Source of the DNA: Sphingomonadales bacterium
GTDB taxonomy: Bacteria > Pseudomonadota > Alphaproteobacteria > Sphingomonadales > Sphingomonadaceae
Direction: 5' to 3'
NCBI GenBank assembly: GCA_006226685.1
Contig: SBGG01000076.1
Coordinates: forward strand, 5,111-69,110
Length of the DNA stretch: 64,000 nucleotides
This document shows positions 33,180 through 53,609 of the stretch, piece after piece. Both the position numbers and the translations under genes were made by a program. Below the pieces are notes generated by a model. The model searched no databases, was not told where the DNA came from, and saw nothing but the letters and a program-made list of their open reading frames with translations. The first letter of the stretch is position 1. Every line of letters begins with the position of its first letter.

Positions 33180-33200
33180 TTATGCATACAGTATGCATAA
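33180..33200. promoter_or_regulatory. Operator S1: perfect 21-bp palindrome TTATGCATACAGTATGCATAA between the divergent CarAa-like and hydrolase genes
   Basis: Read directly; it is perfectly self-complementary (10-1-10). The centre TACAGT (33187-33192) lies 17 nt downstream of TTGACG (33164-33169), so it coincides with a plausible -10 element. Confidence 0.6.
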
Positions 33201-33239
33201 ATTGCAAGCTCGATCGCGTCGGGAAAGTTTGCGGAAACA

Positions 33240-34025
33240 ATGTGCCGGGAGGTTGAAGTGCCCTATATTGATGCTGGCGAAAGCCGGATTTATTATGAAA
33301 GCCATGGAGAGGGGCCGCCTGTCCTGTTCGCCCATGGCGTGGGCGGGAATCATGCCAGCTGGCATAAGCAGGTTCCCGATTTCGTGAAGGATTATCGCGT
33401 CATCCTGTTCGATCATCGCGCATTTGGTAACTCGTCCGATGTGGAGGAGGCCGGGCAGTCCCGTTATGTGGAGGATATGCTCTGCCTGCTCGATGCGCTG
33501 GAGATCGACCGGGTCATTCTGGTCGGGCAATCCATGGGCGGAGGGACCTGCGCCAATTTTACCTGTGCCCATCCCGAACGGGTCGAAAAGCTGGTCATTG
33601 CCGATTCCCTGATCGGCATCGATGCCCCCGAACCATTAGCTACCATGGTCAGGGAAACGCTCGACCGCGTCTGGAACCTCAGCCAGGCGGAACGGGTGCT
33701 CGGCCCGGTGATGCGGGATGACGATCCCGCGAGCACATTGCTCTATCTGCAGATCGCCAGTTTCAACGCGGTGACGATCCGCACGCTGAAAGGAAGCATG
33801 CCGCGCTGGACCCCGGACCGGCTGGCTGCCACCGGCGTGCCGACCTTGTTCCTTGTAGGGGAGCATGATGTGTTGTTCCCGCCGGAAAATGTACGAATGG
33901 CGCAGGCCATGGTTGCCGGGGCATCTTTCGCCCTGATCGAAGGGGCGGGGCATTCAGCTTATTTCGAGCGCCCCCTTGCGTTCAACCGGCATGTCCGGGC
34001 GTTTCTCTCAGCCGGGGAGGGGTAA
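33240..34025 (+). CDS. Alpha/beta-fold hydrolase
   Basis: 261 aa with HGVGGNHASW and the nucleophile elbow LVGQSMGGG, plus a C-terminal GAGHSAYFERP. An alternative GTG start at 33258 lies 6 nt after GGGAGG. Confidence 0.85.
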   Translation: MCREVEVPYIDAGESRIYYESHGEGPPVLFAHGVGGNHASWHKQVPDFVKDYRVILFDHRAFGNSSDVEEAGQSRYVEDMLCLLDALEIDRVILVGQSMGGGTCANFTCAHPERVEKLVIADSLIGIDAPEPLATMVRETLDRVWNLSQAERVLGPVMRDDDPASTLLYLQIASFNAVTIRTLKGSMPRWTPDRLAATGVPTLFLVGEHDVLFPPENVRMAQAMVAGASFALIEGAGHSAYFERPLAFNRHVRAFLSAGEG

Positions 34026-34030
34026 GGAGT

Positions 34031-35224
34031 ATGGCGTCCGTTGAAACGGCCGATATCGTCATCGCCGGCGGTGCCGGCATGGGCAGCGCCGTCGCCTATT
34101 TTCTGAAATCGCTCGGGCCGGAAAATCTGCGTATCATCGTCTGCGAACCCGACCCGACCTATGCCCGTGCCGCGACCACTCTGGCGGCGGGCGGTATCCG
34201 GCAGCAATTTTCCACGCCGGAAAATATCGTCATGTCGCAATATGGCTTCGATTTTCTGCGCCGGATTGATGAAGAGCTGGCGATTGACGGGGAAGGCCCG
34301 CAAGTCGACCTGCATGTGGTGCCCTATCTGCATCTCGCTGCGGGGGGCAAGGATGTCGATGGCCTGCGCGAGAGTTTCGAATTGCAGTCGGAACTGGGCG
34401 CCGGGCCGCTCTGGCTGGAGCGGGACGATCTGCGCGCGCGCTACCCGTGGATGACGGTGGACGATATCGATGCCGCGGTTCTCGGCGGCCCGCGCGAAGG
34501 CGTGTTCGATCCCTATGCGATGTTGCAGGCGTTCCGCCGCAAGGCCGTGTCTTTGGGGGTGGAATATCGCCCCGCAGCCGTTACCGGCATCGAACCGGCA
34601 TCGGGCGCCGAGGGCGTGACGGTTGCCCTATCCGATGGTGGCAGGCTGGCCTGCGGGCGAATCATCAACTGCGCGGGGCCTGCCGCCGGGCGGCTTGCGG
34701 CGCTGGCGGGGCTCGATCTGCCTGTTATTCCGGTGCGGGCGCACAGTTTCGTGTTCAAGGTGGAGCAGGCGCCGACGACGGATCTCTTCCCGATCATCGT
34801 CGATCAGGTTCAGTTGCTCAATATCCGCGCGGAAGGCGATATGTTCCTGGCCGGTTCGCCGCGCGAAGGGGAACTGGTCGATGCCGGGGATAATTTCGCG
34901 ATCGATTATGATTTTTTCGATACTGAATTATGGCCGATGCTGGCGACGCGCGTGCCCGCATTCGAAGCGATCCGGATGACCAGCGCCTGGGTCGGTCATA
35001 TGGAATGGAGCCTGCCGGATGCCAATCCGATCATCGGCCCGCATCCCGATTTTCCGGCTATGGTCTTCGTCAACGGTTTTAGCGGCCATGGCGTGCAGCA
35101 CTGCCCGGCGGTCGGCCGGGCGGTGGCGGAACTGATAGTGTTCGGGGCATATCGGTCGATCGACCTCTCCCGTTTTTCCTATGACCGGATCGCCGCCGGT
35201 CAGCCGCTCACGGAGCGGTACTGA
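34031..35224 (+). CDS. FAD-dependent oxidoreductase (DAO family)
   Basis: 397 aa. The N-terminal dinucleotide fold is ADIVIAGGAGMGSAVAYFL, and the overall layout resembles D-amino-acid / sarcosine oxidase beta. The start lies 5 nt after the hydrolase stop. Confidence 0.82.
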   Translation: MASVETADIVIAGGAGMGSAVAYFLKSLGPENLRIIVCEPDPTYARAATTLAAGGIRQQFSTPENIVMSQYGFDFLRRIDEELAIDGEGPQVDLHVVPYLHLAAGGKDVDGLRESFELQSELGAGPLWLERDDLRARYPWMTVDDIDAAVLGGPREGVFDPYAMLQAFRRKAVSLGVEYRPAAVTGIEPASGAEGVTVALSDGGRLACGRIINCAGPAAGRLAALAGLDLPVIPVRAHSFVFKVEQAPTTDLFPIIVDQVQLLNIRAEGDMFLAGSPREGELVDAGDNFAIDYDFFDTELWPMLATRVPAFEAIRMTSAWVGHMEWSLPDANPIIGPHPDFPAMVFVNGFSGHGVQHCPAVGRAVAELIVFGAYRSIDLSRFSYDRIAAGQPLTERY

Positions 35225-36488
35225 CCGGCTGTTCCACGGCGCTGTCGTTGAAACGCGGCAGCGCCAGCAGGATCAGGCAGAGCAGGGTTAACCCCACGGT
35301 CGCAAAGGTGAAGGGGATAGTGTAATTGCCCCAGATGTCGAAGGCCTCTCCGAACAGAAACGGCCCGACCGCGACGCCGATCATGAACACACCGTAGATC
35401 AGGCCGAATATCCGGCCCGATTGTTTCAGCCCGAAATAGCGGCTGACCAGATAACCGATAAAGTCCGATTCGGCGCCCTGACCGACCGCGAGCAGGATGC
35501 TGCCGGCCAGACCGATCGCCAGCACCGGATAGCTGGCCATCAGGAGCGCCCCCGTTGCCGGGAGGGCGAACACGACCACCGCGATATAGGGCGCGAAATA
35601 GCGGTCGAACATATGACCGGCGAGCAGGCGCGCCGGGATGCCGATCAGGGCGTTGAACATGGTGATCGCGGCCAGCGCGCCCGCGCTCAGCCCATGGTCC
35701 GAAAGAAAGGGTGCGATATGGATCGACATGCCCTGAAGGCAACTGGAGATCAGCAGGACCATGACGATCAGCAGCCAGAAAGGGCGGGTGCGTATCGCCT
35801 CTTGCAGGCTCAGGCCGGGAAGCGGTGTCGCCGCCGCGTTACCCGATTCCGCCTTGCGTTCGACCGGGGCTTCCCGGATGCAGAAGATCGAGACGGGCAG
35901 GCCGATCAACAACGGGAACAGCGACAGGCCCCAGAAGCCGCCGCGCCATCCGAACTGTTCGATCATCAATATGGTGAAGGGACCGGACAAGGCCGCGCCC
36001 AGCACTACGCCGGATGAACAGGCGCCCATGGCAAGGCCGCGCGACCGCAGGCGCGCGCCGGAAAACCAGCCCGAAAGCAGGCGGACATAGCCGACGATAG
36101 TGGATCCGGCGCCGAGCGTGCAGATGAGGGCGAAGCCGATGTAAAAGCCGGTGAGGCCGAACCCGTCGATAAGGAAGGGCACGCAGGCGGTGGCGATGCC
36201 ATATCCTGCTTGCGACAGGATCAGCACGATTCGGGTGCCGAGGCGGTCGATCAGTTCCCCCATCAGCGGATTGGCGACCACCATGGTCAGCGCGCCAATG
36301 GAGAGGGAGAGGGCGACGTCCGACCTGCTCCACCCGAATGCGGTTCCCAGCGGGCGCATGAAAAGCCCGGTATTGATCATCACGATGGATATGGCGCAGC
36401 ACATTGTGCCGATGGTGGAAAACAGGACCATCAGCCACGCCGCCCTGTTTGCGGAATCATCTCTGGCCGCCTCGAAAAATCTTCCCAT
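35208..36488 (-). CDS. MFS transporter
   Basis: 426 aa from an internal ATG at 36488 (MGRFFEAARDDSANRAAWLMVLFSTIG...), with about 12 hydrophobic segments and an MFS loop motif (GELIDRLGTR). The upstream 132 codons of the ORF-track entry are Ser/Arg-rich and run through the operator region. Confidence 0.82.
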   Translation of the reverse strand: MGRFFEAARDDSANRAAWLMVLFSTIGTMCCAISIVMINTGLFMRPLGTAFGWSRSDVALSLSIGALTMVVANPLMGELIDRLGTRIVLILSQAGYGIATACVPFLIDGFGLTGFYIGFALICTLGAGSTIVGYVRLLSGWFSGARLRSRGLAMGACSSGVVLGAALSGPFTILMIEQFGWRGGFWGLSLFPLLIGLPVSIFCIREAPVERKAESGNAAATPLPGLSLQEAIRTRPFWLLIVMVLLISSCLQGMSIHIAPFLSDHGLSAGALAAITMFNALIGIPARLLAGHMFDRYFAPYIAVVVFALPATGALLMASYPVLAIGLAGSILLAVGQGAESDFIGYLVSRYFGLKQSGRIFGLIYGVFMIGVAVGPFLFGEAFDIWGNYTIPFTFATVGLTLLCLILLALPRFNDSAVEQPVSTAP

Positions 36489-36516: not shown

Positions 36517-36538
36517 GCATACTGCATACAAATATGCC
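36517..36538. promoter_or_regulatory. Operator-like hexamer array S2 (GCATAC-t-GCATAC-aaa-TATGCC) upstream of the MFS gene
   Basis: Two perfect GCATAC hexamers and one degenerate inverted copy lie 29-50 nt upstream of the MFS ATG. Confidence 0.35.
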
Positions 36539-36621: not shown

Positions 36622-36650
36622 TTGACAATAGCATACTGTATGCAACAAAT
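36622..36650 (+). promoter_or_regulatory. Putative sigma70-type promoter (TTGACA-17 nt-ACAAAT) with operator S3 (GCATACTGTATGC, 36631-36643) inside the spacer
   Basis: A consensus -35 TTGACA lies at 36622-36627. The 17-nt spacer contains the perfect 13-bp palindrome. A weak -10 ACAAAT lies at 36645-36650, about 60 nt upstream of the Rieske oxygenase ATG. Confidence 0.5.
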
Positions 36651-36708: not shown

Positions 36709-37989
36709 ATGTTGACGAGCGAGGAAAATGAGCGACTGACCCGGGTCGGCCCGGGAACGCCCATGGGGGAAGTGTTGCGGCGGTACTGGATGCCGTTTCT
36801 GCTGCCCGAAGAGCTGCCCGAGGCGGATTGCCCACCCGTGCGGGTGCGATTGCTGGGCGAGGATCTGATCGCCTTTCGCGACACGAACGGACGGCTTGGC
36901 TTGCTGGATCGTTTCTGCCCCCATCGCCGCGTTGACCTGTTTTTTGGGCGTAACGAGGAATGCGGCCTGCGGTGTGTCTATCATGGCTGGAAGTTCGATG
37001 TTGACGGTAATGTCATGGACATGCCGGCCGAGCCCGCCAATTCGCCGATGCGCGAGGAAGTGAAGATCAAATCCTACCCAATCATGGAATGGGGTGGTGT
37101 GATCTGGGCCTATATGGGTGATCCGGCGCATCAGCCGCCGCGCCCGCCGGAAATCGAATGGGGTCTGGTGCCTCCCTCGCACCGCAATATCCAGAAGCGT
37201 CTTCAGGAAAATAACTGGGCGCAGGGTGTCGAAGGCGGGATCGATTCCAGCCATGTCGGCATTCTGCATAGCCTGCTGACCCCGCCGGAGCCTGGCAAGG
37301 GGTTCCGCGACCGGCAGCAGGCGGTAGACCCGGCAGTGCCCTATCTCGCCATGGATACCGCGCCCAAATTCTTCATCCGTCCACAGGAATATGGGATGCT
37401 GATCGGTGCGCGGCGCAAGGCGTCGGAAGAGGAATATTATTGGCGCATCACGCAGTTCCTCGCGCCCTTCTACACGATGATCGCGCGCCGGGAGGAGAAG
37501 GGGCCGATTTCCGGCCATGCCTGGGTGCCGATCGATGACGAGAATACATGGACCTTCACCATGTACTGGGATCCGGATCAGCCGCTGGATCAGAGCGAGG
37601 ATTTCGACGCGACCAAAGTCAATGTCGATGTCTGTCCCGATGGTTCCTATCGTCCGATCAACAATCGCGACAATGACTATGGTATCGACCGCTCGTTGCA
37701 GAAGCTGAGCAATTCGACCGGCATTATCGGTATCGGTCTTCAGGATTCGGCGATTCAGGAGACGATGGGGGCCATTGTCGATCGTTCCATGGAAATTCTT
37801 GGTTCCGGCGATGCGGCCATCGTCGCCTGGCGCAAGCTGATGCTGGCCCAGACCCGGGATCTGGAAAAAGAAGGTGACCTGCCGTTGCCGCATAAAACGG
37901 AGCTTTACCGGGTTCGTTCGGCCGGGGTCGTCCTGCCGCGAGGGATAGATTTCGAGGTTGGGGCGAAGGAACGTCTCACCGTTGCCTGA
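36709..37989 (+). CDS. Alpha-only Rieske non-haem iron oxygenase (phthalate-family / class IA-like oxygenase component)
   Basis: 426 aa. Rieske motif CPHRRVDLFFGRNEECGLRCVYHGWKF; iron-site motif EGGIDSSHVGILH. The RBS is GAGGGA. No beta subunit or fused reductase is present. Confidence 0.88.
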   Translation: MLTSEENERLTRVGPGTPMGEVLRRYWMPFLLPEELPEADCPPVRVRLLGEDLIAFRDTNGRLGLLDRFCPHRRVDLFFGRNEECGLRCVYHGWKFDVDGNVMDMPAEPANSPMREEVKIKSYPIMEWGGVIWAYMGDPAHQPPRPPEIEWGLVPPSHRNIQKRLQENNWAQGVEGGIDSSHVGILHSLLTPPEPGKGFRDRQQAVDPAVPYLAMDTAPKFFIRPQEYGMLIGARRKASEEEYYWRITQFLAPFYTMIARREEKGPISGHAWVPIDDENTWTFTMYWDPDQPLDQSEDFDATKVNVDVCPDGSYRPINNRDNDYGIDRSLQKLSNSTGIIGIGLQDSAIQETMGAIVDRSMEILGSGDAAIVAWRKLMLAQTRDLEKEGDLPLPHKTELYRVRSAGVVLPRGIDFEVGAKERLTVA

Positions 37990-38072
37990 GATCCCGTTCG
38001 GGTCATGGTCGGATCGTCAGCCGGAATGCCGGCGATGATCCTTCCCAACATGCTGACAGGGAAGGGTTGGCA

Positions 38073-39317
38073 ATGAGCGATAAGCGGAATGACATACCGG
38101 GGCATGGGCCGGAGGGCCTGATCCGTCGCAGGGATTTCGTATCGGGCCTGCCTCTGGCTCTTGCCTTGGGCGCATCGTCCATGGCAAGGGCGGCGGTCCG
38201 TCCGCCCTTGCCTCGTCCGGCGCATGTCGTCGTGGTCGGCGGCGGCATTATCGGGGTGACGATCGCGTGGCATCTGGCGCGACGGGCCGTGCGGGTGACG
38301 GTGCTGGATCCGACCCCCGGGCAGGGGTGCACTCAGGGCGCGTTTGCGATGTTGATCGCCGGACAACCGGAAGGCGGCTCCGAGGAATTCAACGCGCTCT
38401 ATGTCCGGGCGGTGGCGGACTGGCGGCGGTTTCAGGCGGAAACGGGCAATGTCCTGCCGATTCAGTGGGGCGGCACCGTCAACTGGGCGGCGCCCGGCGA
38501 CCGGGCCGATACCATGGCGGCCGACTGGCGGCGGCTTGTATCCTGGGGCGTGGGGGCGGAAGCGATCGCGGCCGGGGATGTTGCCCGGCTGTGTCCCGGC
38601 GCGTTGCCGGGTGAATTCGGCGCCGGTTATTTCATGCCCGATCAGGGTGCCGTCGATATTGATGGCGTCATGACCGTGTTGCAGGCGCAGGCGGTACGGG
38701 CTGGTGTCGAGTTCCGGCGCATGTCGGTGGTCGATCTGCCTCGGGGCGAAGATGGCCGGGCGACCATCATGACGGAGCATGGTCCGATTGTCGCGGATCA
38801 TGTGATTTTGGCGGCTGGTGCCGGGACGACCGCATTGGCATCCCGTCTGGGTGCGCATATCCCGCTTGACCTTGTTTCCGGTACGCTGGCGCATAGCAAG
38901 CCGATGGAGCCGGTCCTGCATCGTGTGCTCAACGGGCCGCTGGGATCGATCAAGCAGAATCCCAACGGAACGATCGTGACCGGGCTCGATTATGCGCCCG
39001 GCGCCAGCGGCACCGATATCAGCGAAGCCTATGGTCGGAAATTATTCGCCATTGCGGCGCGGACTGTCCCGGCATTGAAGGATGCGGTGCTGGACAAGAT
39101 GACGCTCGGCTATGTTCCAATCCCGGCGGAAGGGCGAATGCCGATCGTCGGACCGCTGGCGCCGGCGCCCAACGTCTATGTCGCGGCGATGATGAGCGGA
39201 GTGACCATGGCGCCGCTCATGGCCCGTATGATCGCGGCGGAGGTGGTGGACGGCATTCGCGTCGACATGCTCGCGCCCTATCGGCCGGACCGCTTCAACC
39301 CGCAATGGAATGCATGA
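38073..39317 (+). CDS. FAD-dependent oxidoreductase (DAO family) with a predicted twin-arginine (Tat) signal peptide
   Basis: The N-terminus has LIRRRDFVSGLPLALALGASSMARA (RRxF Tat motif plus an AxA cleavage site). This is followed by the FAD fold HVVVVGGGIIGVTIAWHLA. The ORF-track start at 38067 is TTG; ATG 38073 is preferred. Confidence 0.78.
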   Translation: MSDKRNDIPGHGPEGLIRRRDFVSGLPLALALGASSMARAAVRPPLPRPAHVVVVGGGIIGVTIAWHLARRAVRVTVLDPTPGQGCTQGAFAMLIAGQPEGGSEEFNALYVRAVADWRRFQAETGNVLPIQWGGTVNWAAPGDRADTMAADWRRLVSWGVGAEAIAAGDVARLCPGALPGEFGAGYFMPDQGAVDIDGVMTVLQAQAVRAGVEFRRMSVVDLPRGEDGRATIMTEHGPIVADHVILAAGAGTTALASRLGAHIPLDLVSGTLAHSKPMEPVLHRVLNGPLGSIKQNPNGTIVTGLDYAPGASGTDISEAYGRKLFAIAARTVPALKDAVLDKMTLGYVPIPAEGRMPIVGPLAPAPNVYVAAMMSGVTMAPLMARMIAAEVVDGIRVDMLAPYRPDRFNPQWNA

Positions 39318-39379
39318 ACATCGGTAACGCAGGGCCGGCCCTTGCCGGTGCCGCAAATGGACAGTGACGAGGTGAAATA

Positions 39380-40366
39380 ATGGCAAAAATCGTTCTTGGA
39401 ATTGGCAGCTCGCACAGTCCGGCGCTGTTGATGGAGCCGAAGGCGTGGCTGCGTCGCGGTGAAACCGATGATCAGAAATATCACGCCCTCTATGATTTTG
39501 ACGGGGTACGCGTGCAATATGATGAATTGCTCGCCAAGGCGCCCGCCGGTCTGCTCAAGGAAATCGAACCGGAGATCATGGATCGGCGGTACGCCGCGAA
39601 TGAAGCGGGTATCGCCGCGGTTGCGGCCAAGCTGAAGGAAGTCGATCCCGATGTCATCCTGATCATCGGGGATGACCATAAGGAAGTGTTTCAGGACGAC
39701 AACATGCCCGCGCTGTCCGTCTATTGGGGGGATACGCTCCCCTATAAGGCGCAGGGACTGATGAAATGGCCCTATGCCGATGATCTCAAGGCCGATGTCT
39801 GGTATCCGCAGCAGGAGGCCGATTATCCGGTTGCGTCGGATCTCGCGCGCCGGCTGATCGGTGATCTGATCGAACGCGGGTTCGATCCGGCCCACTCTAA
39901 ATTCTATCCGGAAGGGCAGGGGATGAGCCATTCCTTCGGATATATTTATCACCGGATCATGACCGAAAAGGTCTGGCCGGTCATTCCGATCACCCTCAAT
40001 ACCTATTACCCGCCGAATCAGATCACGCCTCGCCGCGCCTATCAGCTGGGTCGCACGTTAAGGGAAACGGTCGAAAGCTGGCCGGAAGATTTGCGCGTCG
40101 CGGTCATGGCGACGGGCGGTCTGAGCCATTTCGTCGTCGATGAGGAATTCGACCGGGCCTATATCGAATTGTTGCGTAACGGCGATGAGGAAGGGCATGC
40201 TGCGCTGCCGCGTGAAAAGCTGCAATCCGGCAATTCCGAATTCCGGTGCTGGACGACGCTTGCGGGTGCGGTGCAAGGCATGGCATTCGACCTGATCGAT
40301 TATGTGCCCTGTTATCGGTCCCCGGCGGGAACAGGATGTGGCATGGCCTTCGCAACCTGGGAATGA
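39380..40366 (+). CDS. Class III extradiol ring-cleavage dioxygenase, single-subunit LigB-family protein
   Basis: 328 aa with LigB-type blocks GIGSSHSP, ILIIGDDHKEVF, MSHSFGY and ATGGLSHFVVDEEFD. The RBS is GAGGTGA. Confidence 0.82.
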   Translation: MAKIVLGIGSSHSPALLMEPKAWLRRGETDDQKYHALYDFDGVRVQYDELLAKAPAGLLKEIEPEIMDRRYAANEAGIAAVAAKLKEVDPDVILIIGDDHKEVFQDDNMPALSVYWGDTLPYKAQGLMKWPYADDLKADVWYPQQEADYPVASDLARRLIGDLIERGFDPAHSKFYPEGQGMSHSFGYIYHRIMTEKVWPVIPITLNTYYPPNQITPRRAYQLGRTLRETVESWPEDLRVAVMATGGLSHFVVDEEFDRAYIELLRNGDEEGHAALPREKLQSGNSEFRCWTTLAGAVQGMAFDLIDYVPCYRSPAGTGCGMAFATWE

Positions 40367-40411
40367 ACATCCTGTTGCCGGGCGGCGGATGAAGAAGGAG
40401 GAACGGGTATC

Positions 40412-41107
40412 ATGGGTGAATGCGAAACCGGCTGGAGTGTCACGCCGCCTGTGGTGCCGGGCCTTGCCGTGGAGGGAAGCGATGCCCGTTTCCCGGTCGG
40501 CCGGATATTCTGCGTCGGCCGCAATTATGCCGACCATGCGCTCGAAATGGGTGCGGACCCGGTACGGGAACCTCCGTTCTTCTTCATGAAGCAGTCCAGC
40601 GCGTTGCTGACCGATGGGGCGGCCTTGCCCTATCCGCCGCGCACGGCCTCCCTGCATCACGAGGTCGAACTGGTTGTTGCGATCGGCACGGGCGGTTCGG
40701 GGATCGCTCCGGCGGACGCGCTTGATCATATATTCGGCTATGCGGTCGGTATCGACATGACCCGCCGCGACTTGCAGGACGAAGCGAAGGCGAAGCGCAG
40801 GCCGTGGGATGTCGCCAAGAGCTTTGACGGCGCCGCGCCCGTGGGGGTGATCGTGCCGGGACGGACTATGGCAGGCGACATCGGGATCAGCCTCAGTGTC
40901 GACGGCGCGGTGCGCCAGACAGGCAAGTTGGGGGCGATGATCTGGTCCGTGCCGGAAATCATCGCCGAACTGTCCACCTATCAGGCGCTTCTGCCCGGCG
41001 ACCTGATCTTCACCGGCACGCCAGCGGGTGTCGGCGCGGTCGAAGCCGGGCAGGTCATGCACGCCGAAATCGAAACCTTGCCATCGCTTTCCGTCCGCGT
41101 CGCCTGA
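40412..41107 (+). CDS. Fumarylacetoacetate hydrolase (FAH) family protein (fumarylpyruvate hydrolase / oxaloacetate decarboxylase-like)
   Basis: 231 aa with RIFCVGRNYADHALEMG, FFFMKQSSAL, HHEVELVVAIG and GDLIFTGTPAGVG. The RBS AAGGAGGA is strong. Confidence 0.88.
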   Translation: MGECETGWSVTPPVVPGLAVEGSDARFPVGRIFCVGRNYADHALEMGADPVREPPFFFMKQSSALLTDGAALPYPPRTASLHHEVELVVAIGTGGSGIAPADALDHIFGYAVGIDMTRRDLQDEAKAKRRPWDVAKSFDGAAPVGVIVPGRTMAGDIGISLSVDGAVRQTGKLGAMIWSVPEIIAELSTYQALLPGDLIFTGTPAGVGAVEAGQVMHAEIETLPSLSVRVA

Positions 41108-41156: not shown

Positions 41157-41178
41157 TGCATACCGTATTCAGAATGCA
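41157..41178. promoter_or_regulatory. Operator-like hexamer array S4 (TGCATAC-c-GTATTC-a-GAATGC) between the FAH and aldehyde dehydrogenase genes
   Basis: It matches the 15-bp palindrome TGCATACNGTATGCA at 14 of 15 positions and carries one additional degenerate hexamer. Confidence 0.45.
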
Positions 41179-42690: not shown

Positions 42691-42721
42691 GCCGCCGTGC
42701 CGGCCGGGGAGTTGATCGAAC

Positions 42722-44510: not shown

Positions 44511-44525
44511 TGTATGCAGTACACA
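44511..44525. promoter_or_regulatory. Degenerate operator-like site S5 (GTATGC-a-GTACAC) upstream of the TBDR gene
   Basis: One perfect hexamer and one 4/6 hexamer lie about 50 nt upstream of the TBDR ATG. The match is weak. Confidence 0.25.
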
Positions 44526-44575
44526 TAACGGAGGACGCATAAGAAAGATAATATTAGCAAGAAGGGGACGTGGGA

Positions 44576-46945: not shown

Positions 46946-46971
46946 TCTTTCGATCAGGATAGGATTCATGT

Positions 46972-47007
46972 CACGGTCGCGCATCAGGCGCGGCCGTGAT
47001 TTTTTAT
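46972..47007 (+). terminator. Rho-independent terminator of the TBDR gene
   Basis: CACGGTCGCGC-atcag-GCGCGGCCGTG forms an 11-bp stem with one G-U pair. It is followed by ATTTTTTAT and starts 27 nt after the stop codon. Confidence 0.65.
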
Positions 47008-47040
47008 GGCTGCCACGGTGCGGCGATTGTTGCGGACAGG

Positions 47041-47073
47041 AAAAAGGCGACGCGGCCTCTGCGCCGCGTCGCC
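47041..47073 (-). terminator. Rho-independent terminator of the aspartate-dehydrogenase-like gene
   Basis: GGCGACGCGGC-ctctgc-GCCGCGTCGCC forms an 11-bp perfect stem. On the minus strand it is followed by TTTTT (the plus-strand A-run at 47041-47045). Confidence 0.65.
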
Positions 47074-47095
47074 CGATGGCGTTGTCCGGGCGGGA

Positions 47096-47899
47096 TCAGG
47101 ACCCGATTTTGAGCGTGGAGGTCAGCCCCTGAAGCGCGGCGACGACCGACAGGGCGGTAATCCGTCCGGTGCCGGGTTTCTCGATCGAGGGAATATTCTC
47201 GATCTTCAGCTCGAACCGGGCGGAATCCGCATCGACGATGATATTATGGGTGTTGCGTTCAAGCGCGGGGTCGGCCCAGATCTGAAGCCGGGTCTTGTCC
47301 GGTCCGATCCCGGCAAGGGCGAGGGCCGCGGCAACGTTCACATTGGCCGGGAAGCCGCGAGCGCCTTCTCTCGCGCTGCCGTCAAACAGCATCAGCGGTT
47401 CAGTCAGCGCCATCACGTCCACGCCCTGCCGATCGACTTCGGGTGCGCCTTTCAGCGACTTGGGCGGTTTGCGCGTGACCATGGTCACCGAATATATGGT
47501 GCCGTTCGCCGCAGCCCGTACAGCGTCCAGCCCCAGCAGCGCGCCGGTCGCGACGATGATGCGGCCGCCATGGCGACGGGCGAGATCGACCATTTCCATA
47601 TGTTCGATCAGGGCGGCGGCGCTGACGGTCACCACCTGCTTCCCGGCCTCCAGCGCGGGAATGACGGTTTCGAGAAAGGCGGCTGTCGGCGCGCATTCAA
47701 CGATGATGTCGGCGGTATCGGCCAGTTGCTGCGGCGTCAGCACCGGAACGTCGATCCCCATGTCTTTCAGCTTGGCCTGTGCACGGTCGCTGCTGCCGCT
47801 GGTGATGCCGACCAGTTCCATATTCTCAAGGCCTGCCGCGATACGGCGCCCGACCTCGGCGCCGATGGTTCCGAAGCCCGCAATTCCCACTTTAGTCAT
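47096..47899 (-). CDS. L-aspartate dehydrogenase (NadX) family oxidoreductase
   Basis: MTKVGIAGFGTIGAEVGRRI is a Rossmann fold. The C-terminal block GFPANVNVAAALALAGIGPDKTRLQIWADPALERNTHNIIV is typical of the Asp-DH family. ATG 47899 lies 5 nt after AGGAGG; the ORF-track start at 47914 is GTG. Confidence 0.8.
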   Translation of the reverse strand: MTKVGIAGFGTIGAEVGRRIAAGLENMELVGITSGSSDRAQAKLKDMGIDVPVLTPQQLADTADIIVECAPTAAFLETVIPALEAGKQVVTVSAAALIEHMEMVDLARRHGGRIIVATGALLGLDAVRAAANGTIYSVTMVTRKPPKSLKGAPEVDRQGVDVMALTEPLMLFDGSAREGARGFPANVNVAAALALAGIGPDKTRLQIWADPALERNTHNIIVDADSARFELKIENIPSIEKPGTGRITALSVVAALQGLTSTLKIGS

Positions 47900-47987
47900 T
47901 CCATCCTCCTGCACATGATAGGTAAATCGTCACCCCGGCGGCACCGGATCGGCACCACCGGAAAGGCTCTTGCAGACAGTCTTATAG

Positions 47988-48004
47988 TTGCATACAGTAT
48001 GCAA
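47988..48004. promoter_or_regulatory. Operator S6: perfect 17-bp palindrome TTGCATACAGTATGCAA between the divergent Asp-DH-like and ferredoxin genes
   Basis: Read directly. The centre TACAGT (47993-47998) lies 17 nt downstream of TTGCAG (47970-47975), the same architecture as S1. Confidence 0.6.
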
Positions 48005-48027: not shown

Positions 48028-48345
48028 ATGACGACGCTCACTCTTGTGTGCAAAACATCGGAGGTGCCTGAAAACGGGGTAAAACAAATATCCATTCCCG
48101 GTTTCGATGAGGAATTTGCCGTTTATCATCTGGATGGCGAGTATTTCGTGACGGACGACATGTGCACTCATGGCATGGTATCGCTGGCCGGCGGCGATAT
48201 CGAGGATGGCCAGATTTTCTGCCCTCTGCATGGCGGAGCATTTGACATCCGTACCGGCAAGGCGACCGAATTGCCCTGCCGCGTGAAGCTGAAAACCTAT
48301 GCGGTCGAGGTGAAGGACGACGCGGTTTACGCGGCCCTGTCCTGA
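48028..48345 (+). CDS. Rieske-type [2Fe-2S] ferredoxin (electron carrier for Rieske oxygenases)
   Basis: 105 aa with CTHGMVSLAGG...(16)...CPLHGGAFD. ATG 48028 follows AGGGAG. Confidence 0.88.
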   Translation: MTTLTLVCKTSEVPENGVKQISIPGFDEEFAVYHLDGEYFVTDDMCTHGMVSLAGGDIEDGQIFCPLHGGAFDIRTGKATELPCRVKLKTYAVEVKDDAVYAALS

Positions 48346-48382: not shown

Positions 48383-49669
48383 TCATGCTGCGGCCTTTGT
48401 CGTCACTATCGCCCAGTCGCTGCCGGGATCGGCTAAGGCCGCGAGATCGGTAATGCGCTGCCCCAGCAATTTCTTGCCCTGCCGCAAGGCGCGGGCGGCG
48501 TTGACGGAGGTCACCCCGATGACCTCGTCACCCGTCAGGTGGAAGATGAGGAAGTTGCCCTCTGCCCTGTTTCCGCGCACCACGTCGCGTTCCCCGATCG
48601 GGGTGCCGAATACCTGTACCGCTATGTCATATTGGTCGGTCCAGTAGGAGGATTGCTCGGTATAGGCCGGATCGTGGCCATCGATCAGCATGCGGCCGAC
48701 ATGTTCGCCATGGGCGGCGGCGTGGGCCCAGGTCTCCTGCCGGTCATGCCGCCCCAGCCGGTCGTTGAAATGCCAGGCGATTTCGCCGGCGGCATAGATG
48801 AAGGGATCGCTGGTACGCCCTGCGGAATCGACCATGATACCGGTCGGTGCGATCGCCAGACCTGCCTGTTCCGCCAGCGCGATGTTGGGAACAACCCCGA
48901 TGCCGACCAGCACCAGATCGGCCTGAAACCGGTGTCCGTCCGACAAGGTGAAGGTCGGGCCGTTCGCTGTCCGGTCGATCGTTGCGATATGGGTGCCGAG
49001 GCGAAGATCTACACCCGCCGCGCGATGGCGATCTTCGAGGAAATTGCTCAACAGGGGAGAGGCAGCGCGGGCCATGACCCGATCGGCAGGATCGATCACC
49101 AGCACGGAACGGGTGCCGTCGGCGAGAACGGCGGCGGCTTCCAGCCCGATCACGCCCGCACCGATGATCGCGACCTTGCGTGCATTCTCCATCGCACCGC
49201 GCAGCCGGAGTGCATCGTCCAGCGTGCGCAGATAATGGACATGGTCGGTGCCGGGCGGCAGATCGGTCAGCGTCCGGACCGAGGAACCGGTCGCCAGCAC
49301 CAGCCGGTCATACCCGATAGAGTCTCCGCCCTGCAGTGCGATCATACGCCGTTCCGGGTGGAGCGCCGCGCAGCGTGCGCCCAGCCGCAGTTCGATCTGC
49401 GCCGCGGCCAGCTCTTCCGGTCGGGTCAGGTGGATGCGGCTTTCTTCCCCGGCCTTCATCAATACGGCCTTGGACAGGGGCGGGCGATCATAAGGCAGAT
49501 GCTCTTCATCGCTCAGCAGCAGGATCGACCCGGTAAAGCCTGCCTCCCGCAAGGAGAAGGCGACCCGGACACCGGCCAGCCCCGCGCCGACGATGACGAC
49601 CCGGCTCCTTTCGTTCAGTGGCGCGGGATCTCCCTGGGCATTTTTTTCCATCACTGTCTCGCTTGTCAT
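48383..49669 (-). CDS. FAD-dependent ferredoxin--NAD(P)+ reductase (glutathione-reductase-type)
   Basis: 428 aa. FAD fold VVIVGAGLAGVRVA and NAD fold VAIIGAGVIGLEAA, with the reductase C-terminal dimerisation region. The ATG overlaps the stop of the upstream dioxygenase gene (ATGA). Confidence 0.9.
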   Translation of the reverse strand: MTSETVMEKNAQGDPAPLNERSRVVIVGAGLAGVRVAFSLREAGFTGSILLLSDEEHLPYDRPPLSKAVLMKAGEESRIHLTRPEELAAAQIELRLGARCAALHPERRMIALQGGDSIGYDRLVLATGSSVRTLTDLPPGTDHVHYLRTLDDALRLRGAMENARKVAIIGAGVIGLEAAAVLADGTRSVLVIDPADRVMARAASPLLSNFLEDRHRAAGVDLRLGTHIATIDRTANGPTFTLSDGHRFQADLVLVGIGVVPNIALAEQAGLAIAPTGIMVDSAGRTSDPFIYAAGEIAWHFNDRLGRHDRQETWAHAAAHGEHVGRMLIDGHDPAYTEQSSYWTDQYDIAVQVFGTPIGERDVVRGNRAEGNFLIFHLTGDEVIGVTSVNAARALRQGKKLLGQRITDLAALADPGSDWAIVTTKAAA

Positions 49670-50481
49670 CGGTCGGCCCTGATTTCGATCGCGCCCATGC
49701 CGGTGATCCAGGCGGGCACGGCTTCATAATAAATCTCTTCACCGCGAGCGCCGGGCAGGGCACCTGCGGCAAACAGCCATGCAATCATTTCCAGTCCGCC
49801 ATTGCCCGATGCGGCGACGATCTCCTCGCTGCTCAGTTCCGCCAGCTTTTCGGCCTGGCCCGTAATGATGGCGTCAATGACTTCCTTATCGAACGCATCG
49901 GCGATCTGCCCTTCTCCGGGCATGCGCAGCCAGTGAGAAAGCCCCCCGGTACCGACGACCAGAACCCGCTCGCCTTCCGGTCTTTCCTCTTCGACGAAGC
50001 GGTGCAGCACCTCCCCCAGCCGGTAGCAGCGGCGCGGCGAAGGCGGCACGGGCATGGCAGCGTTGATGTAGAGCGGAACGGTCGGAATGGCGTTGCCGGG
50101 ATCGAGCACCAGCTTGGGGAAGGCGGTGCCATGGTCGGGCCGCATTTCCTCTACCTGCACCAGCTCATAATCATGATGGGCAGCGAAGCGGGCAAAGGCT
50201 TCCGCAAAGGCGCGATCCCCCGGGAAACGGCTGACCGGAACGCCGCCGTCGCCCAGCGTTTCGAAGCTGTCGGCAATGCCGATGGCGAGCGTCACCTGCA
50301 TGGCGAGGGTGAAATTATTAAGGTGATCCGCCCCGGCCAGAATGATGAGATCGGGGTTCAGCGCGCGAACGCGCCGGCGTATTTCCAGCATGCCCTGCAA
50401 GACACGCTCGGCCTGTTCCTCTATGCCGTCGGGCGGGAACATGATGTGCGACATTGCGATGGCGCCTATGACCTTACCCAT
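49666..50481 (-). CDS. Class III extradiol dioxygenase, catalytic (LigB/CarBb-like) subunit
   Basis: 271 aa with GAIAMSHIMF, LIILAGADHLNNF, RPDHGTAFP and GTGGLSHWL, which are LigB-family metal and active-site blocks. Confidence 0.88.
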   Translation of the reverse strand: MGKVIGAIAMSHIMFPPDGIEEQAERVLQGMLEIRRRVRALNPDLIILAGADHLNNFTLAMQVTLAIGIADSFETLGDGGVPVSRFPGDRAFAEAFARFAAHHDYELVQVEEMRPDHGTAFPKLVLDPGNAIPTVPLYINAAMPVPPSPRRCYRLGEVLHRFVEEERPEGERVLVVGTGGLSHWLRMPGEGQIADAFDKEVIDAIITGQAEKLAELSSEEIVAASGNGGLEMIAWLFAAGALPGARGEEIYYEAVPAWITGMGAIEIRADR

Positions 50482-50482
50482 A

Positions 50483-50773
50483 TTATCGCTCCAGAAGGCG
50501 GTCGAGATAGGCGTCGAGGGGACCCGCGCCGACCAGTTTGGCGCCGTCGCCGCCGGAATGGCGCAGGCGCAGATATTTCATTTGCAGATTGGGATGGACG
50601 CCAAGGCCGGTCATCGCCTCCATCGATCCGCTATCCAGCAAGGCGGCCTCTTCCGGGCTGATCTCATATTGGTCGAAAATCGGCTGCGGGTCGGTTGCAA
50701 AGCGGGCGGCGGCCGCCGGATCGCGCATCATGTCCTGAATCAGCTTGTGAATGCGATAGGGCGCACGGGTCAT
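50483..50773 (-). CDS. Extradiol dioxygenase small (LigA/CarBa-like) subunit
   Basis: 96 aa from an internal ATG at 50773 (MTRAPYRIHKLIQDMMRDPAAAARFATDPQPIFDQYEISPEEAALLDSGSMEAMTGLGVHPNL), a LigA-like pattern. The ATG overlaps the hydrolase stop (ATGA), and its stop lies 1 nt before the catalytic-subunit ATG. Confidence 0.72.
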   Translation of the reverse strand: MTRAPYRIHKLIQDMMRDPAAAARFATDPQPIFDQYEISPEEAALLDSGSMEAMTGLGVHPNLQMKYLRLRHSGGDGAKLVGAGPLDAYLDRLLER

Positions 50774-51612
50774 TTCGGCTGAACCTCGAACAGGCCGTCC
50801 TGAAAGAAAGCGGTCGTGATCGCGGCAAATTCGCCGGGGGCCTCGATCATCACCCAATGGCCGACATGGGGGAGGACGAAGCCCCAGCTATTGGGCAGCA
50901 GGTCGAGGAACCCATAGGTGCGGGCGAGCACGGCGACCTGATCTTCCTTGCCGCCGACGACCAGCGTCGGCGTCTGCACCTTCGCAATCTCTTCCCGGGG
51001 ATAGGTCATCCCTTCCTGGGCGAGCTTCCGGTTGATCGCGCCAAGTGCTTCCCGGCTGCCCGGTTCCATGGTGAGTTCATAGCGATACTGCACCAGTTCA
51101 TCCTCGATCCGGTAGTGCGACCCGGCGAGTACGCTCATCAGCGTGCGCATGCCCTCCGGCGTATAGTCATAGGATGCCAGTATCTTTTTGGCGGCCGGGT
51201 CAGGGTTGCTGATGTCGAGGCCGGCCGCGCCCATCAGGACGAGTTTGCGGATCAGGTCCGGCCGGGCGATCGCAACGCCCAGCGCCGTGGCGCCGCCCAT
51301 GGAATTGCCGATCAGGAAAACCGGCTCCTCCCCGGCCACGGCGTCGATGAAGGCGGCCATGTGGCGGTTGCGATTGGCCTGCCCATAATCAAATTGTTCG
51401 GGGTCAGGGCGGCCCGATCGACCGAAGCCCGGCATGTCGACCGCGATGGTGCGGAAATGGCGGGCATAACCATCAAGGCACCCGCGCCAGTTGCCCCAGG
51501 CATCCGCACCGGACCCGCCCCCGTGAATCAGGACGAGGACCGGACCACTTCCGGTTTCCAGATAATGGGTCTTCACCCCCGCTATGTCGATGAATTTGCT
51601 TTCCACGTTCAT
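50770..51612 (-). CDS. Meta-cleavage compound (C-C bond) hydrolase, BphD/CarC-like alpha/beta hydrolase
   Basis: 280 aa with VLIHGGGSGADAWGNW, the nucleophile elbow LIGNSMGG and a C-terminal VGHWVMIE, as in MCP hydrolases. It is the first gene of the hydrolase-dioxygenase-reductase operon. Confidence 0.9.
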   Translation of the reverse strand: MNVESKFIDIAGVKTHYLETGSGPVLVLIHGGGSGADAWGNWRGCLDGYARHFRTIAVDMPGFGRSGRPDPEQFDYGQANRNRHMAAFIDAVAGEEPVFLIGNSMGGATALGVAIARPDLIRKLVLMGAAGLDISNPDPAAKKILASYDYTPEGMRTLMSVLAGSHYRIEDELVQYRYELTMEPGSREALGAINRKLAQEGMTYPREEIAKVQTPTLVVGGKEDQVAVLARTYGFLDLLPNSWGFVLPHVGHWVMIEAPGEFAAITTAFFQDGLFEVQPK

Positions 51613-51633: not shown

Positions 51634-51662
51634 GCATATTGCATACTGTATGCTTTGTATGA
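51634..51662. promoter_or_regulatory. Operator array S7 (GCATAT-t-GCATAC-t-GTATGC-ttt-GTATGA) upstream of the hydrolase operon
   Basis: The perfect 13-bp core GCATACTGTATGC (51641-51653) is flanked on each side by one degenerate hexamer. It lies 22-50 nt upstream of the hydrolase ATG (51612). Confidence 0.55.
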
Positions 51663-51814: not shown

Positions 51815-52591
51815 TCAGGCGGTGGCTTCTGCTTTCGACGCCTTGGGCCTGTCGTCATTGGCGGCGCCCCCGACCGCGTTCAGCGGGGCGGCGTCTTCCA
51901 GTACATATTTGAGGTTCTTGCGGACCGTGTCGATATAGCTGCGCATTTCCGCTTCGGCGCGCGCGGGGTCTCCGGCGATCACGGCTTCCATGACCTTGCC
52001 TTCATATTCGATTTCCAGCGCCCGATATTCCGGAACGCTGAAAATAGCGCGGCGCGCGGGCTGGGCCTGATCGTCGAGCAGTTGCGAGCAGCGAGCAAGG
52101 AGGCCGTTGCGGCACATGCTGCGCAGGGCGCTGCGGAATTCCACATTGGCGCGGATGAACTTGTCGAGGTCGCCCGCTTCATGGGCAGCACACTGCCCCT
52201 TATGAAGCTTTTCCAGCGCCTTGCGCTGGGAAGCGGTGCCTTCTACGGCGGCATGATAGGCCAGCCGGGGATCGATCAGTTCGCGCACTTCATGACGGTC
52301 CGCCGTCATCTGGGAATCGTCTTCGGCCACGACATAGCCGCGCTCGGCCGGGCTGAGCAGGCCGTCGCGAGACAATTGAAACAGCGCTTCGCGAACAGGG
52401 GTTCGCGATACATTATACCGCTTGGCAAGTTCGCCTTCGACCAGGCGGCTGCCCGGTTCCAGCATGCCGACCTTGAGGTCGTCCAGTATCAGGGCATAAA
52501 CCTGATCCCGAAGGCGATCGACCTGTACGACAGTCCTGGGGATGCGTGCCATTATTGTGAAGACTCCTTTGTTCCTGTCCATGCCGAACAT
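51815..52591 (-). CDS. GntR-family transcriptional regulator (FadR/FCD subfamily)
   Basis: The wHTH is LVEGELAKRYNVSRTPVREALFQLSRDGLL, followed by an all-helical FCD-like C-terminal domain. An alternative start at ATG 52552 follows AAGGAG. Confidence 0.88.
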   Translation of the reverse strand: MFGMDRNKGVFTIMARIPRTVVQVDRLRDQVYALILDDLKVGMLEPGSRLVEGELAKRYNVSRTPVREALFQLSRDGLLSPAERGYVVAEDDSQMTADRHEVRELIDPRLAYHAAVEGTASQRKALEKLHKGQCAAHEAGDLDKFIRANVEFRSALRSMCRNGLLARCSQLLDDQAQPARRAIFSVPEYRALEIEYEGKVMEAVIAGDPARAEAEMRSYIDTVRKNLKYVLEDAAPLNAVGGAANDDRPKASKAEATA

Positions 52592-52720: not shown

Positions 52721-52740
52721 GCATGCGGTATTCTGAATAA
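52721..52740. promoter_or_regulatory. Operator-like hexamer array S8 (GCATGC-g-GTATTC-t-GAATAA) upstream of the GntR gene
   Basis: It has the same three-hexamer architecture as S4 and lies about 130 nt upstream of the GntR start, which may indicate autoregulation. The match is degenerate. Confidence 0.35.
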
Positions 52741-52812
52741 TCAGGATTGACCGGAAGAATTGGGCAATGCCGCCCATGGGATGAGTCGTCCGATTTCCGA
52801 CTTCCATTTGTC

Positions 52813-53574
52813 TCATGGGTTCGTGGTCCGCATGGTGGCACGCATCAGCCTGCCTGGACCCATCGGGTGCACATGCAGCAGGGTGGCCATCCGCCAGGCC
52901 AGAAGCTGAAGGCTGGTCAGCACGCTTATTCTCAGTTCGCTTTCCAGTTCGTCGATCAGCGGCACAGCGCGCAGCCCGGTGCAGGAAAGAAAAATTGCAT
53001 CGGGGCGGCAGGTCATTGCGGAACGGGCCGCCGCCCTGATGCTCTCGGCGGATATCGATGTAATGTCCGCATCGGTCGCGTCGAAATGGCCCAGCCATGG
53101 AATGTCGAGGCCTTGCGACGACAAGGCCCCGGCGACCATTCGGCTTTGTTCCTCATCATAAGGGCTGACGATGGCAATCCGGCGCAACCCCATGATACGG
53201 CAGGCGACAAGGGCGGCATGGACCGGGTCGGCGGCCATGATGGTGCATCCCGGGCGGGCAAAGGCCGCGCGAAGACGCGGTTCGCCCAACCGCACCGCGC
53301 CGGTCGTGCAGGCGAAGCCGATGACGGGCGGAGGCGCGGAGGGGAGCAGGCTGGCGGCGGCTGCCCGCAGGGATGCTTCCAGCCCATTGTCATCGGCCGG
53401 GAAGGGGATGCGCGCCATATGCAGGTCGGTTTCCGCACCGAGAAGGCGGTGCATGGTGGGGCCGCTCACAGGATCGTCATCGAACAGGACAAGGCCCGCT
53501 CCGCGCATGGGGTAATGGGTGCTCGACCAGTTTTTTCGTTCGACTATCATGGTTGTGGGTTCCCCTTGATCCAT
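52813..53574 (-). CDS. Asp/Glu/hydantoin racemase superfamily protein (maleate cis-trans isomerase / arylmalonate decarboxylase-like)
   Basis: 253 aa with two Cys-containing pseudo-symmetric halves (VIGFACTTGA and AIFLSCTGLRAV), as in maleate isomerases. An alternative start is ATG 53550. Confidence 0.75.
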   Translation of the reverse strand: MDQGEPTTMIVERKNWSSTHYPMRGAGLVLFDDDPVSGPTMHRLLGAETDLHMARIPFPADDNGLEASLRAAAASLLPSAPPPVIGFACTTGAVRLGEPRLRAAFARPGCTIMAADPVHAALVACRIMGLRRIAIVSPYDEEQSRMVAGALSSQGLDIPWLGHFDATDADITSISAESIRAAARSAMTCRPDAIFLSCTGLRAVPLIDELESELRISVLTSLQLLAWRMATLLHVHPMGPGRLMRATMRTTNP

Positions 53575-53596
53575 GTCCGGCTTTACAACTATTATT

Positions 53597-53609
53597 GTGC
53601 ACCGTATGC
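53597..53609. promoter_or_regulatory. Degenerate operator-like site S9 (GTGCAC-c-GTATGC) between the divergent isomerase-like and quinone oxidoreductase genes
   Basis: One perfect hexamer and one 3/6 hexamer with the correct 1-bp spacing. Confidence 0.3.

Follow-up and report, generated by a model that had tools for sequence, protein, structure and literature searches.

A window of 64,000 nucleotides from a Sphingomonadales bacterium (contig SBGG01000076.1) carries, between 31.9 and 54.7 kb, a set of genes that Pfam assignments identify as an aromatic-catabolism cluster of about 23 kb. A short palindrome, GCATAC-N-GTATGC, recurs in the intergenic regions of this cluster, raising the question of what the element does and which protein reads it. 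We conclude that it is probably the operator of a repressor encoded in the cluster itself, namely a GntR-family, FadR-subfamily (FCD) regulator (51815..52591, minus strand) that is the only regulator gene inside the cluster. A shared repressor operator, with this regulator as its binder and with autoregulation, had been proposed in an earlier, sequence-only reading of the same DNA. That proposal is supported by phylogenetic footprinting in 11 related loci, by the position of the sites at predicted promoters, by the way the motif tracks GntR genes, and by nearly empty control sequences.

To describe the motif in the window, we searched for the pattern GCATACNGTATGC (GCATAC-N-GTATGC; 12 specified bases) with increasing tolerance for mismatches. 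Perfect matches were present at 33184, 36631, 47990 and 51641, whereas none occurred in 100 dinucleotide-preserving shuffles. All four are intergenic, as had been claimed; the rarity originally attributed to them was calculated for a 13-mer, not for 12 specified bases. With up to two mismatches, seven sites were found against 2.15 expected, and none of the 100 shuffles reached this number. These seven sites (S1, S2, S3, S4, S6, S7 and S8) fall within 33–53 kb and are all intergenic on a gene map drawn from Pfam assignments and revised start codons. The same search detected no palindrome in the remaining 41 kb of the window. With up to three mismatches the count was at chance level (30 versus 24.3), so that two further proposed sites, S9 (three mismatches) and S5 (four mismatches, and thus missed by the searches at up to two and up to three), are inseparable from noise by mismatch count. 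All nine sequences, S1–S9, were recovered by look-up where the sequence-only reading had placed them.

A position weight matrix (PWM) built exclusively from sites of other loci, with the window excluded, was then run over the window. Its 11 highest-scoring hits were, in order, S1, S6, S7, S3, S4, S2, S5, S9, a second register of S7, S8, and a second register of S4. Their scores fell from 29.0 to 10.7 bits, and all of these hits lie in intergenic DNA of the cluster. The twelfth hit, at 7.1 bits, was in coding sequence, marking a sharp drop. In 30 mononucleotide shuffles of the window, the best score averaged 11.9 bits and reached a maximum of 19.5 bits; S5, S8 and S9, with 15–18 bits, are therefore borderline when taken one by one. 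Their credibility comes mainly from location, as all three lie in intergenic DNA of the cluster, which makes up roughly 4% of the window. The claim that the motif precedes nearly every transcription unit of the cluster holds. Also in agreement with that reading, neither mismatch nor PWM scans detected a site in the intergenic region next to a neighboring IclR gene or in the adjoining lower-pathway operon (27985-31643).

Four of the sites have a perfect core. S1 (33180..33200, TTATGCATACAGTATGCATAA; core 33184-33196) lies between the divergent carAa-like gene and the operon for an alpha/beta-hydrolase and a DAO-type oxidoreductase (hydrolase-DAO), ranks first in the PWM scan with 29.0 bits, and overlaps the predicted −10 element of TTGACG-17-TACAGT. 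S6 (47988..48004, TTGCATACAGTATGCAA; 28.3 bits) is situated between the divergent genes for an aspartate-dehydrogenase-like (AspDH-like) enzyme and a Rieske-type ferredoxin (carAc-like), and accompanies the promoter-like sequence TTGCAG-17-TACAGT. S3 (36631..36643; 25.4 bits) occupies the spacer of TTGACA-17-ACAAAT, the putative promoter of the LigXa-like oxygenase operon. The spacings originally quoted for these three promoters are correct. S7 (51634..51662) combines a perfect core at 51641-51653 with an overlapping register at 51634-51646 (27.3 and 16.9 bits, respectively); it is centered 35 nt upstream of the operon with carC-, carBa-, carBb- and carAd-like genes, just downstream of the GntR gene.

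The other five sites are variants. S2 (36517..36538, core 36517-36529; 23.1 bits) reads GCATAC-T-GCATAC, with its center 35 nt upstream of the start codon, at 36488, of a gene for a major facilitator superfamily (MFS) transporter; both of its mismatches fall at the tolerated Y/R positions 2 and 5 of the hexamer. S4 (41157..41178), between the genes for an FAH-family hydrolase and an aldehyde dehydrogenase, consists of the one-mismatch sequence GCATAC-C-GTATTC (41158-41170; 25.1 bits) and an overlapping weaker register (41165-41177; 10.7 bits), and is intergenic given that the likely start of the aldehyde dehydrogenase gene is 41206. Upstream of the GntR gene, S8 (52721..52740) is a weak candidate autoregulatory site, GCATGC-G-GTATTC (52721-52733; two mismatches, 15.2 bits). 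S9 (53597..53609; 17.6 bits), GTGCAC-C-GTATGC, is half-conserved and lies in the 63 bp that separate the divergent Amdase/EutA-like and quinone oxidoreductase (QOR) genes, directly preceded by the promoter-like sequence TTGATC-18-TATTAT. S5 (44512..44524; 17.8 bits, rank 7), GTATGC-A-GTACAC, upstream of the gene for a TonB-dependent receptor, is a weak candidate and the least secure of the nine.

We derived the consensus of the element from 22 sites with at most one mismatch, taken from seven loci: T-GCATAC-N-GTATGC-A with AT-rich flanks. Any base is accepted at the center (A/C/G/T = 10/12/12/10). Each hexamer is nearly self-complementary (GYATRC), and mismatches concentrate at positions 2 and 5, which accounts for the variants GTATAC and GCATGC and for the direct-repeat form GTATGC-N-GTATGC. 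The latter was found at S2 and in the related loci L007, L092 and L095. The description of the hexamers as an inverted repeat applies to the consensus and fails for S2, which is a direct repeat. Because the hexamers are asymmetric, with a strong preference for C2 and A5, within a site that as a whole has two-fold symmetry, the dyad is placed at the central N. The recognition unit, which had been left ambiguous, is accordingly best described on sequence grounds as one palindrome of 13–15 bp, sized for a single dimer. Other units were rejected: the 8-mer TATGCATA occurs only at S1, and the same asymmetry speaks against reading the hexamers as independent GT-N2-AC mini-palindromes. Cooperative multi-dimer arrays, suggested earlier for S2, S4, S7 and S8, were likewise rejected as a conserved feature, with flanking half-sites not enriched across 35 strong sites (score 2.26 versus a background of about 2.0). 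Weak extra boxes beside GntR-family sites are a known family-wide phenomenon (PMC4494728).

A recurrent inverted repeat in intergenic DNA might also be a dispersed element of the repetitive extragenic palindromic (REP) or miniature inverted-repeat transposable element (MITE) kind, or a DNA or RNA hairpin acting as a terminator or processing site. However, we found no similarity beyond about 15–19 bp around the sites and hence no longer repeat unit; conservation covers only about 15 bp. The sites are AT-rich and occur at 5′ ends and promoters, not between convergent genes. The hairpins predicted for them are of low stability (z −0.1 to −1.8) and have no T-tract, and variants in one arm are uncompensated in the other, indicating that sequence is conserved and not pairing. 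Together with the absence of the motif from the rest of the window and the nearly empty controls described below, these observations make a repeat or hairpin extremely improbable and led us to reject a terminator role and membership in a longer repeat.

To determine whether the sites are conserved, we performed the phylogenetic footprinting that the sequence-only reading had suggested as a check. Homologues of the regulator with 45–81% identity are common in metagenome assemblies, and the isolates Sphingomonas crocodyli and Novosphingobium flavum also have an orthologue. Through homologues of 45–78% identity we fetched 11 independent loci (L001, L002, L005, L007, L008, L010, L092, L093, L094, L095 and L096). 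The source names of their proteins point to Sphingomonadales and Caulobacteraceae, all from metagenome contigs, and the G+C content of L094–L096 is 65–70%. Most of the 11 loci have the same genes in a shuffled arrangement. They contain 41 sites with up to two mismatches, all intergenic (two of them after allowing for gene calls that were probably drawn too long) and for the most part at promoters of orthologous genes, including those of the carC operon, the AspDH/ferredoxin spacer, carAa, the hydrolase-DAO pair, and the LigXa-like, MFS, QOR and FAH genes. The 116 kb of cluster loci set against the control sequences described below hold 14 perfect and 8 one-mismatch sites.

In alignments of orthologous intergenic regions, conservation was confined to a −35-like hexamer and the palindrome. 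At S1, the window, L002 and L007 share ATTGACG, the palindrome and TTGCAAGC, and the flanks have diverged. At S3, GGTTGAC followed after 2–3 nt by the operator is kept in the same three loci. In a five-locus alignment of the AspDH/ferredoxin spacer (S6), only the −35-like TTGCA and the palindrome are conserved. The S7 footprint in L001 consists of GCGCTTGCAC, about 10 nt, and then the operator; equivalents of S7 are present in L002, L007, L010, L092 and L095. The direct-repeat variant seen at S2 is found again, as GTATGC-A-GTATGC and in the same orientation, upstream of an MFS gene in L007 (at 9699). The hydrolase-DAO pair also has an upstream motif in L002, L007, L010, L092, L094, L095 and L096, and the LigXa-like gene in L002 and L095; in L007, the motif stands at the orthologous position before an open reading frame (ORF) truncated at the contig end. 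Perfect sites precede the orthologous QOR gene in L092 (8768) and L008 (2544).

Two of the three borderline sites gained support from the orthologous locus L001. The variant seen at S8, GAATAC-N-GCATGC on the gene strand, also lies upstream of the GntR orthologue there amid diverged flanks. S9 is part of a block of about 30 bp (ATTGCATACGGTGCACAATAATAgTTGTAAA) in which the window and L001 differ by one base, again with diverged flanks. The position in L001 orthologous to S5 is only loosely similar.

We then analyzed how the motif is distributed relative to the regulator gene. The carC-carBaBb-carAd-like operon is the neighbor of the GntR gene in the window and, with synteny preserved, in 9 of the 11 related loci (all except L093 and L094). 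The motif is found next to the GntR gene in the window as well as in L001, L002, L005, L007, L008, L010, L092, L094, L095 and L096. It also accompanies the regulator gene where the gene context is unrelated. L094 contains a paralogue (48% identity) and the hydrolase-DAO pair only, with one site in the divergent spacer. In L093, a GntR homologue of 50% identity stands by TauD and amidohydrolase genes, with one site upstream of the regulator gene; the car genes of this locus, which are distant from the GntR gene, have no site. The third case came from a control set of 580 kb, drawn from 80 loci whose GntR genes are distantly related (full-length identity no higher than about 38%) and which were collected by a metagenome scan with VSRTP[VI]REA patterns. 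Besides one perfect match in a GlmU-like coding region, this set yielded only a site in L060 (4264-4276), GTATAC-T-GTATGC, which precedes the start of an FCD regulator with 33% identity by about 45 nt. A TRAP-transporter (DctQ) gene follows at a distance of about 1.4 kb downstream; genes of aromatic catabolism were not detected in L060. This site suggests that an operator of the TAC-N-GTA type may be used by a wider clade of regulators.

These data also bear on whether the palindrome is a genuine operator bound by some other protein, such as the product of the IclR gene (27985-28800) or an unlinked factor, with the GntR protein recognizing something else. IclR genes do occur beside the cluster in the window and in L002 and L096, and the motif departs from the canonical FadR-subfamily consensus. 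However, the fetched regions of five motif-bearing loci (L007, L010, L092, L094 and L095) contain no IclR gene, the surroundings of the IclR gene in the window are devoid of sites, and the motif adjoins GntR genes in the unrelated contexts of L093, L094 and L060. We consider binding by another regulator quite unlikely, and infer that the GntR protein is the binder.

By domain content, the regulator qualifies as a bona fide member of the FadR subfamily. It has an N-terminal winged helix-turn-helix domain (PF00392; residues 28-80; 57.1 bits, cutoff 27) and a C-terminal FCD effector/oligomerisation domain (PF07729; residues 100-221; 66.2 bits, cutoff 24.3). The recognition helix, VSRTPVREAL, is invariant among its homologues, and the nearest solved structures are the FCD-type GntR regulators 3ihu and 6z74. 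Homologues begin with MAR, and the true start is probably Met14, at 52552. A scan of genome contigs with this single GntR protein, using window-specific peptide patterns, returned only two distant relatives. A text search of the available papers for the hexamers together with GntR gave nothing relevant.

Some genomes have two paralogous GntR/FCD genes, about 45–50% identical, one beside the carC operon and the other divergent from the hydrolase-DAO pair, with the same palindrome at both places. Such genes were found at 15353-16018 in L010, 16804-17475 in L092, 8001-8663 and 13210-13878 in L095, and 8001-8678 in L094. The window has the carC-side type only.

The position of the sites relative to predicted promoters is informative about the mode of action. 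The operator begins 2–3 nt after the −35-like hexamer at S3, 9–10 nt after it at S7 and at S6 in L002 and L007, and 14 nt after it at S1 and S6, and S2, S6, S7 and S9 are centered 32–35 nt before the start codon. A fixed site at variable positions within the predicted core promoter points to steric repression, as opposed to class I or class II activation or a sigma-factor element. Alternatively, the GntR protein might recognize the palindrome and activate transcription or play a dual part, like BphR1 of Pseudomonas KF707. GntR-family activators of bph genes are documented (PMC10282184), the promoters here were assigned from the sequence, and S8 is far from the start codon of the regulator gene. 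Against this, operators placed 2–14 nt downstream of conserved −35-like hexamers with variable spacing, and four promoters with a site just ahead of the start codon, suit occlusion of the promoter and not class I/II activation. We regard an activating or dual role as unlikely.

Under the repressor model that we favor, a dimer of the regulator would sit on each palindrome, with one winged-helix domain per hexamer and the dyad at the free central base. At the strong sites, which are predicted to lie within the core promoter (in the −35/−10 spacer, over the −10 element, or at +1), the bound dimer would block RNA polymerase. About nine promoters and about 12 transcription units would be silenced in this way, including those for an angular dioxygenase system of the carbazole type (CarAa, CarAc and CarAd), the extradiol dioxygenase CarBaBb and the hydrolase CarC, the second, LigXa-like oxygenase operon, two transporters and the accessory enzymes. 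Single sites in divergent spacers (S1, S6 and S9) could control both directions, and the weaker S8 might impose mild negative autoregulation on the regulator gene. A pathway metabolite, most plausibly a carboxylated one such as a meta-cleavage product, would bind the FCD domain and release the repressor; we propose a carboxylated intermediate by analogy with BphS and its inducer HOPD (PMC10282184).

Several observations weigh against this interpretation. The site upstream of the regulator gene is weak and 136–175 nt from the start codon. The center of the motif, TAC-N-GTA, does not match the FadR-subfamily consensus TKGT-N2-3-ACMA (PMC4494728). The promoter elements were assigned from conservation and consensus, and a strict sigma-70 scan finds only those at S1 and S9. 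The related loci were retrieved via the GntR gene, so that co-occurrence is partly built into the sample; this is offset only by L093, L094, L060 and the control set. Finally, the presence of two GntR paralogues in some Caulobacteraceae-type loci makes the binder at each site ambiguous there.

The predicted regulon comprises the following genes. S1 is shared by the carAa-like gene (31922..33103, minus strand), which encodes a terminal oxygenase of the homotrimeric Rieske angular dioxygenase type (Pfam Aromatic_hydrox and Rieske), and the operon for the alpha/beta-hydrolase and the DAO-type FAD oxidoreductase (33240..35224, plus strand). The oxygenase aligned over its full length with CarAa, the terminal oxygenase of carbazole 1,9a-dioxygenase (PDB 1ww9; 424 bits), and by this sequence criterion is a true CarAa homologue. 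S2 precedes the MFS transporter gene (35208..36488, minus strand), and S3 an operon for a LigXa-like Rieske oxygenase, a DAO-type oxidoreductase, a LigB-like extradiol dioxygenase and an FAH-family hydrolase (36709..41107, plus strand). S4 would control the genes for an aldehyde dehydrogenase and a thiamine diphosphate (ThDP) enzyme (41206..44348, plus strand), and the weak S5 possibly that for the TonB-dependent receptor (44570..46945, plus strand). S6 is common to the genes for the AspDH-like NAD enzyme (47096..47914, minus strand) and the Rieske-type, carAc-like ferredoxin (48028..48345, plus strand). The operon under S7 (48383..51612, minus strand) consists, by Pfam, of genes for a carC-like meta-cleavage-product hydrolase (50770-51612), the carBaBb-like subunits of a LigA/LigB-type extradiol dioxygenase (49666-50857) and a carAd-like GR-type ferredoxin reductase (48383-49669). 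S9 would serve the Amdase/EutA-like gene of the Asp/Glu racemase superfamily (52813..53574, minus strand) and the zinc-type alcohol dehydrogenase/quinone oxidoreductase gene (53638..54666, plus strand).

Some further features of the cluster and its surroundings were observed. A frameshift near 42.9 kb (within 42690-43030) interrupts the ThDP (acetolactate-synthase-like) gene: its N-terminal ~70 residues (MSKKKVATAVVEALRNMG...) are read in one frame from about 42722, and the remainder in another from about 42918. The L001 orthologue is intact (541 aa), and the frameshift is either an assembly error or a mark of a pseudogene. Two strong, converging terminator-like hairpins (stems of 12–13 bp followed by T-tracts) at 46970-47074, between the convergent genes for the TonB-dependent receptor and the AspDH-like enzyme, appear to form a clean transcription boundary within the cluster. 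In L002, fragments of insertion sequences (IS66, rve and IS21/IstB; 11045-15101) flank the MFS gene, indicating that mobile elements rearrange the cluster in some lineages, consistent with the shuffled gene orders. At 55052-55101, overlapping ORFs contain 5.6 perfect tandem copies of a 9-bp unit (GCCGCTACC), which on the plus strand encode (AAT)n in an ORF of 215 aa (54782-55429) and might serve as a contingency or linker repeat. The only tRNA gene of the window, tRNA-Phe (GAA; 16246-16320), is unrelated to the cluster.

The IclR regulator gene adjoins the cluster and is divergent from a lower meta-pathway operon encoding a 2-keto-4-pentenoate hydratase of the FAH type, an acetaldehyde dehydrogenase and an HOA aldolase. 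In L010, the same lower-pathway trio is preceded by the palindrome, and the fetched region has no IclR gene. In L092, the trio precedes the GntR gene, with no site of up to two mismatches directly upstream and no IclR gene in the fetched region. Since the arrangement of palindrome, IclR and GntR genes differs among the window, L010 and L092, lineages appear to differ in the regulatory wiring of the lower pathway.

A local GntR repressor with its operator in a catabolic cluster is of an expected kind and changes no concept. What the analysis offers is a map of the regulon of an unstudied cluster for aromatic degradation, one found repeatedly in metagenome contigs attributed to Sphingomonadales and Caulobacteraceae. 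On this map, about 20 genes are likely to be co-induced, tying the accessory enzymes and two transporters to a car-like core. The candidate repressor/operator pair could provide a route to the inducer, and hence to the substrate, or a biosensor. It would also be one more FadR-subfamily case off the GT...AC rule, useful for models of protein–DNA recognition. Going further, we tentatively raise, as a possible though doubtful extension, that the cluster is an uncharacterized recurrent catabolic regulon, in which a CarAa-type system is combined with LigXa-like oxygenase, DAO-type, AspDH-like and Amdase-like enzymes for a natural biaryl or N-heterocycle other than carbazole, under a FadR-subfamily clade (with two paralogues in some genomes) that reads an 'inverted-core' TAC-N-GTA operator. 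If such an operator is real, the winged helix would dock on DNA differently from the way seen in FadR–DNA structures.

Similar to the alphaproteobacterial car clusters of Novosphingobium sp. KA1 (pCAR3) and of Erythrobacter sp. KY5 and Thalassococcus sp. S3 ('Caulobacteridae-type'), the cluster in the window has homologues of carAa, carBaBb and carC with meta-pathway genes (hydratase, acetaldehyde dehydrogenase and aldolase) nearby. By contrast, its gene order differs from that of Erythrobacter sp. KY5 (carDAaCBaBbFE), and both gene order and content differ from the car clusters of KA1, CA10/J3, IC177 and the 'Caulobacteridae-type'. The electron-transfer components also differ: the window has a ferredoxin of the Rieske type together with a linked GR-type reductase (class IIB-like), whereas in KA1 the ferredoxin is of the putidaredoxin type and the reductase is unlinked. 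The car operon of a thiabendazole-degrading Sphingomonas MAG (bioRxiv 10.1101/2020.03.30.015693) was rejected as a match for the cluster, being of the KA1 type and devoid of carAd. A megablast search of the 22-kb cluster against the PLSDB plasmids produced trivial short matches only, with no nucleotide similarity of the cluster as such. A tblastn search of the same plasmids with the GntR protein found nothing at E<=1e-20 and at most 36% identity at 1e-8. These searches gave no indication of a link to plasmids of the pCAR type.

There is established precedent for GntR-family proteins that repress bph and car meta-cleavage operons and sense the meta-cleavage product (PMC10282184), and in Nocardioides aromaticivorans IC177 the carR gene precedes carAaCBaBbAcAd (PMC10992316). 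We compared the window with BphS (Acidovorax/Pseudomonas sp. KKS102 and Tn4371) and CarR (Janthinobacterium sp. J3 and N. aromaticivorans IC177) by gene context and mode of action. As in those systems, a GntR-family gene stands beside genes for an aromatic dioxygenase, an extradiol dioxygenase and a meta-cleavage-product hydrolase, and repression is exerted, or in the window predicted from the sites, through operators that overlap promoters. A pathway intermediate is expected as the inducer here, as for BphS with HOPD (PMC10282184). Unlike BphS and CarR, which act on one or two promoters of a compact operon, a single operator type here would cover about nine promoters and 12 units over 23 kb. 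The window also adds a LigXa-like operon, two DAO-type oxidoreductases, an AspDH-like enzyme, transporters and other genes to the gene set of those clusters; because of these many extra genes, the substrate is probably not simply carbazole.

Within its own subfamily, the regulator shares the GntR winged helix and FCD domain with FadR, PdhR, LldR, GlcC, DgoR and UxuR. Its predicted operator resembles those of the subfamily in being an A/T-rich palindrome of about 15 bp, with half-site centers about 7 bp apart, sized for one dimer. As in other members, sites lie in divergent spacers and near the regulator's own gene, occasionally with extra weak half-sites. In the survey of Suvorova et al. 2015 (PMC4494728), the FadR-subfamily consensus places GT and AC around the center (GT-N2-3-AC), whereas the center found here is an invariant TAC-N-GTA, with the dinucleotide order reversed. 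Such a non-canonical operator would place the regulator with the non-conforming minority of the family, such as BioR and NanR.

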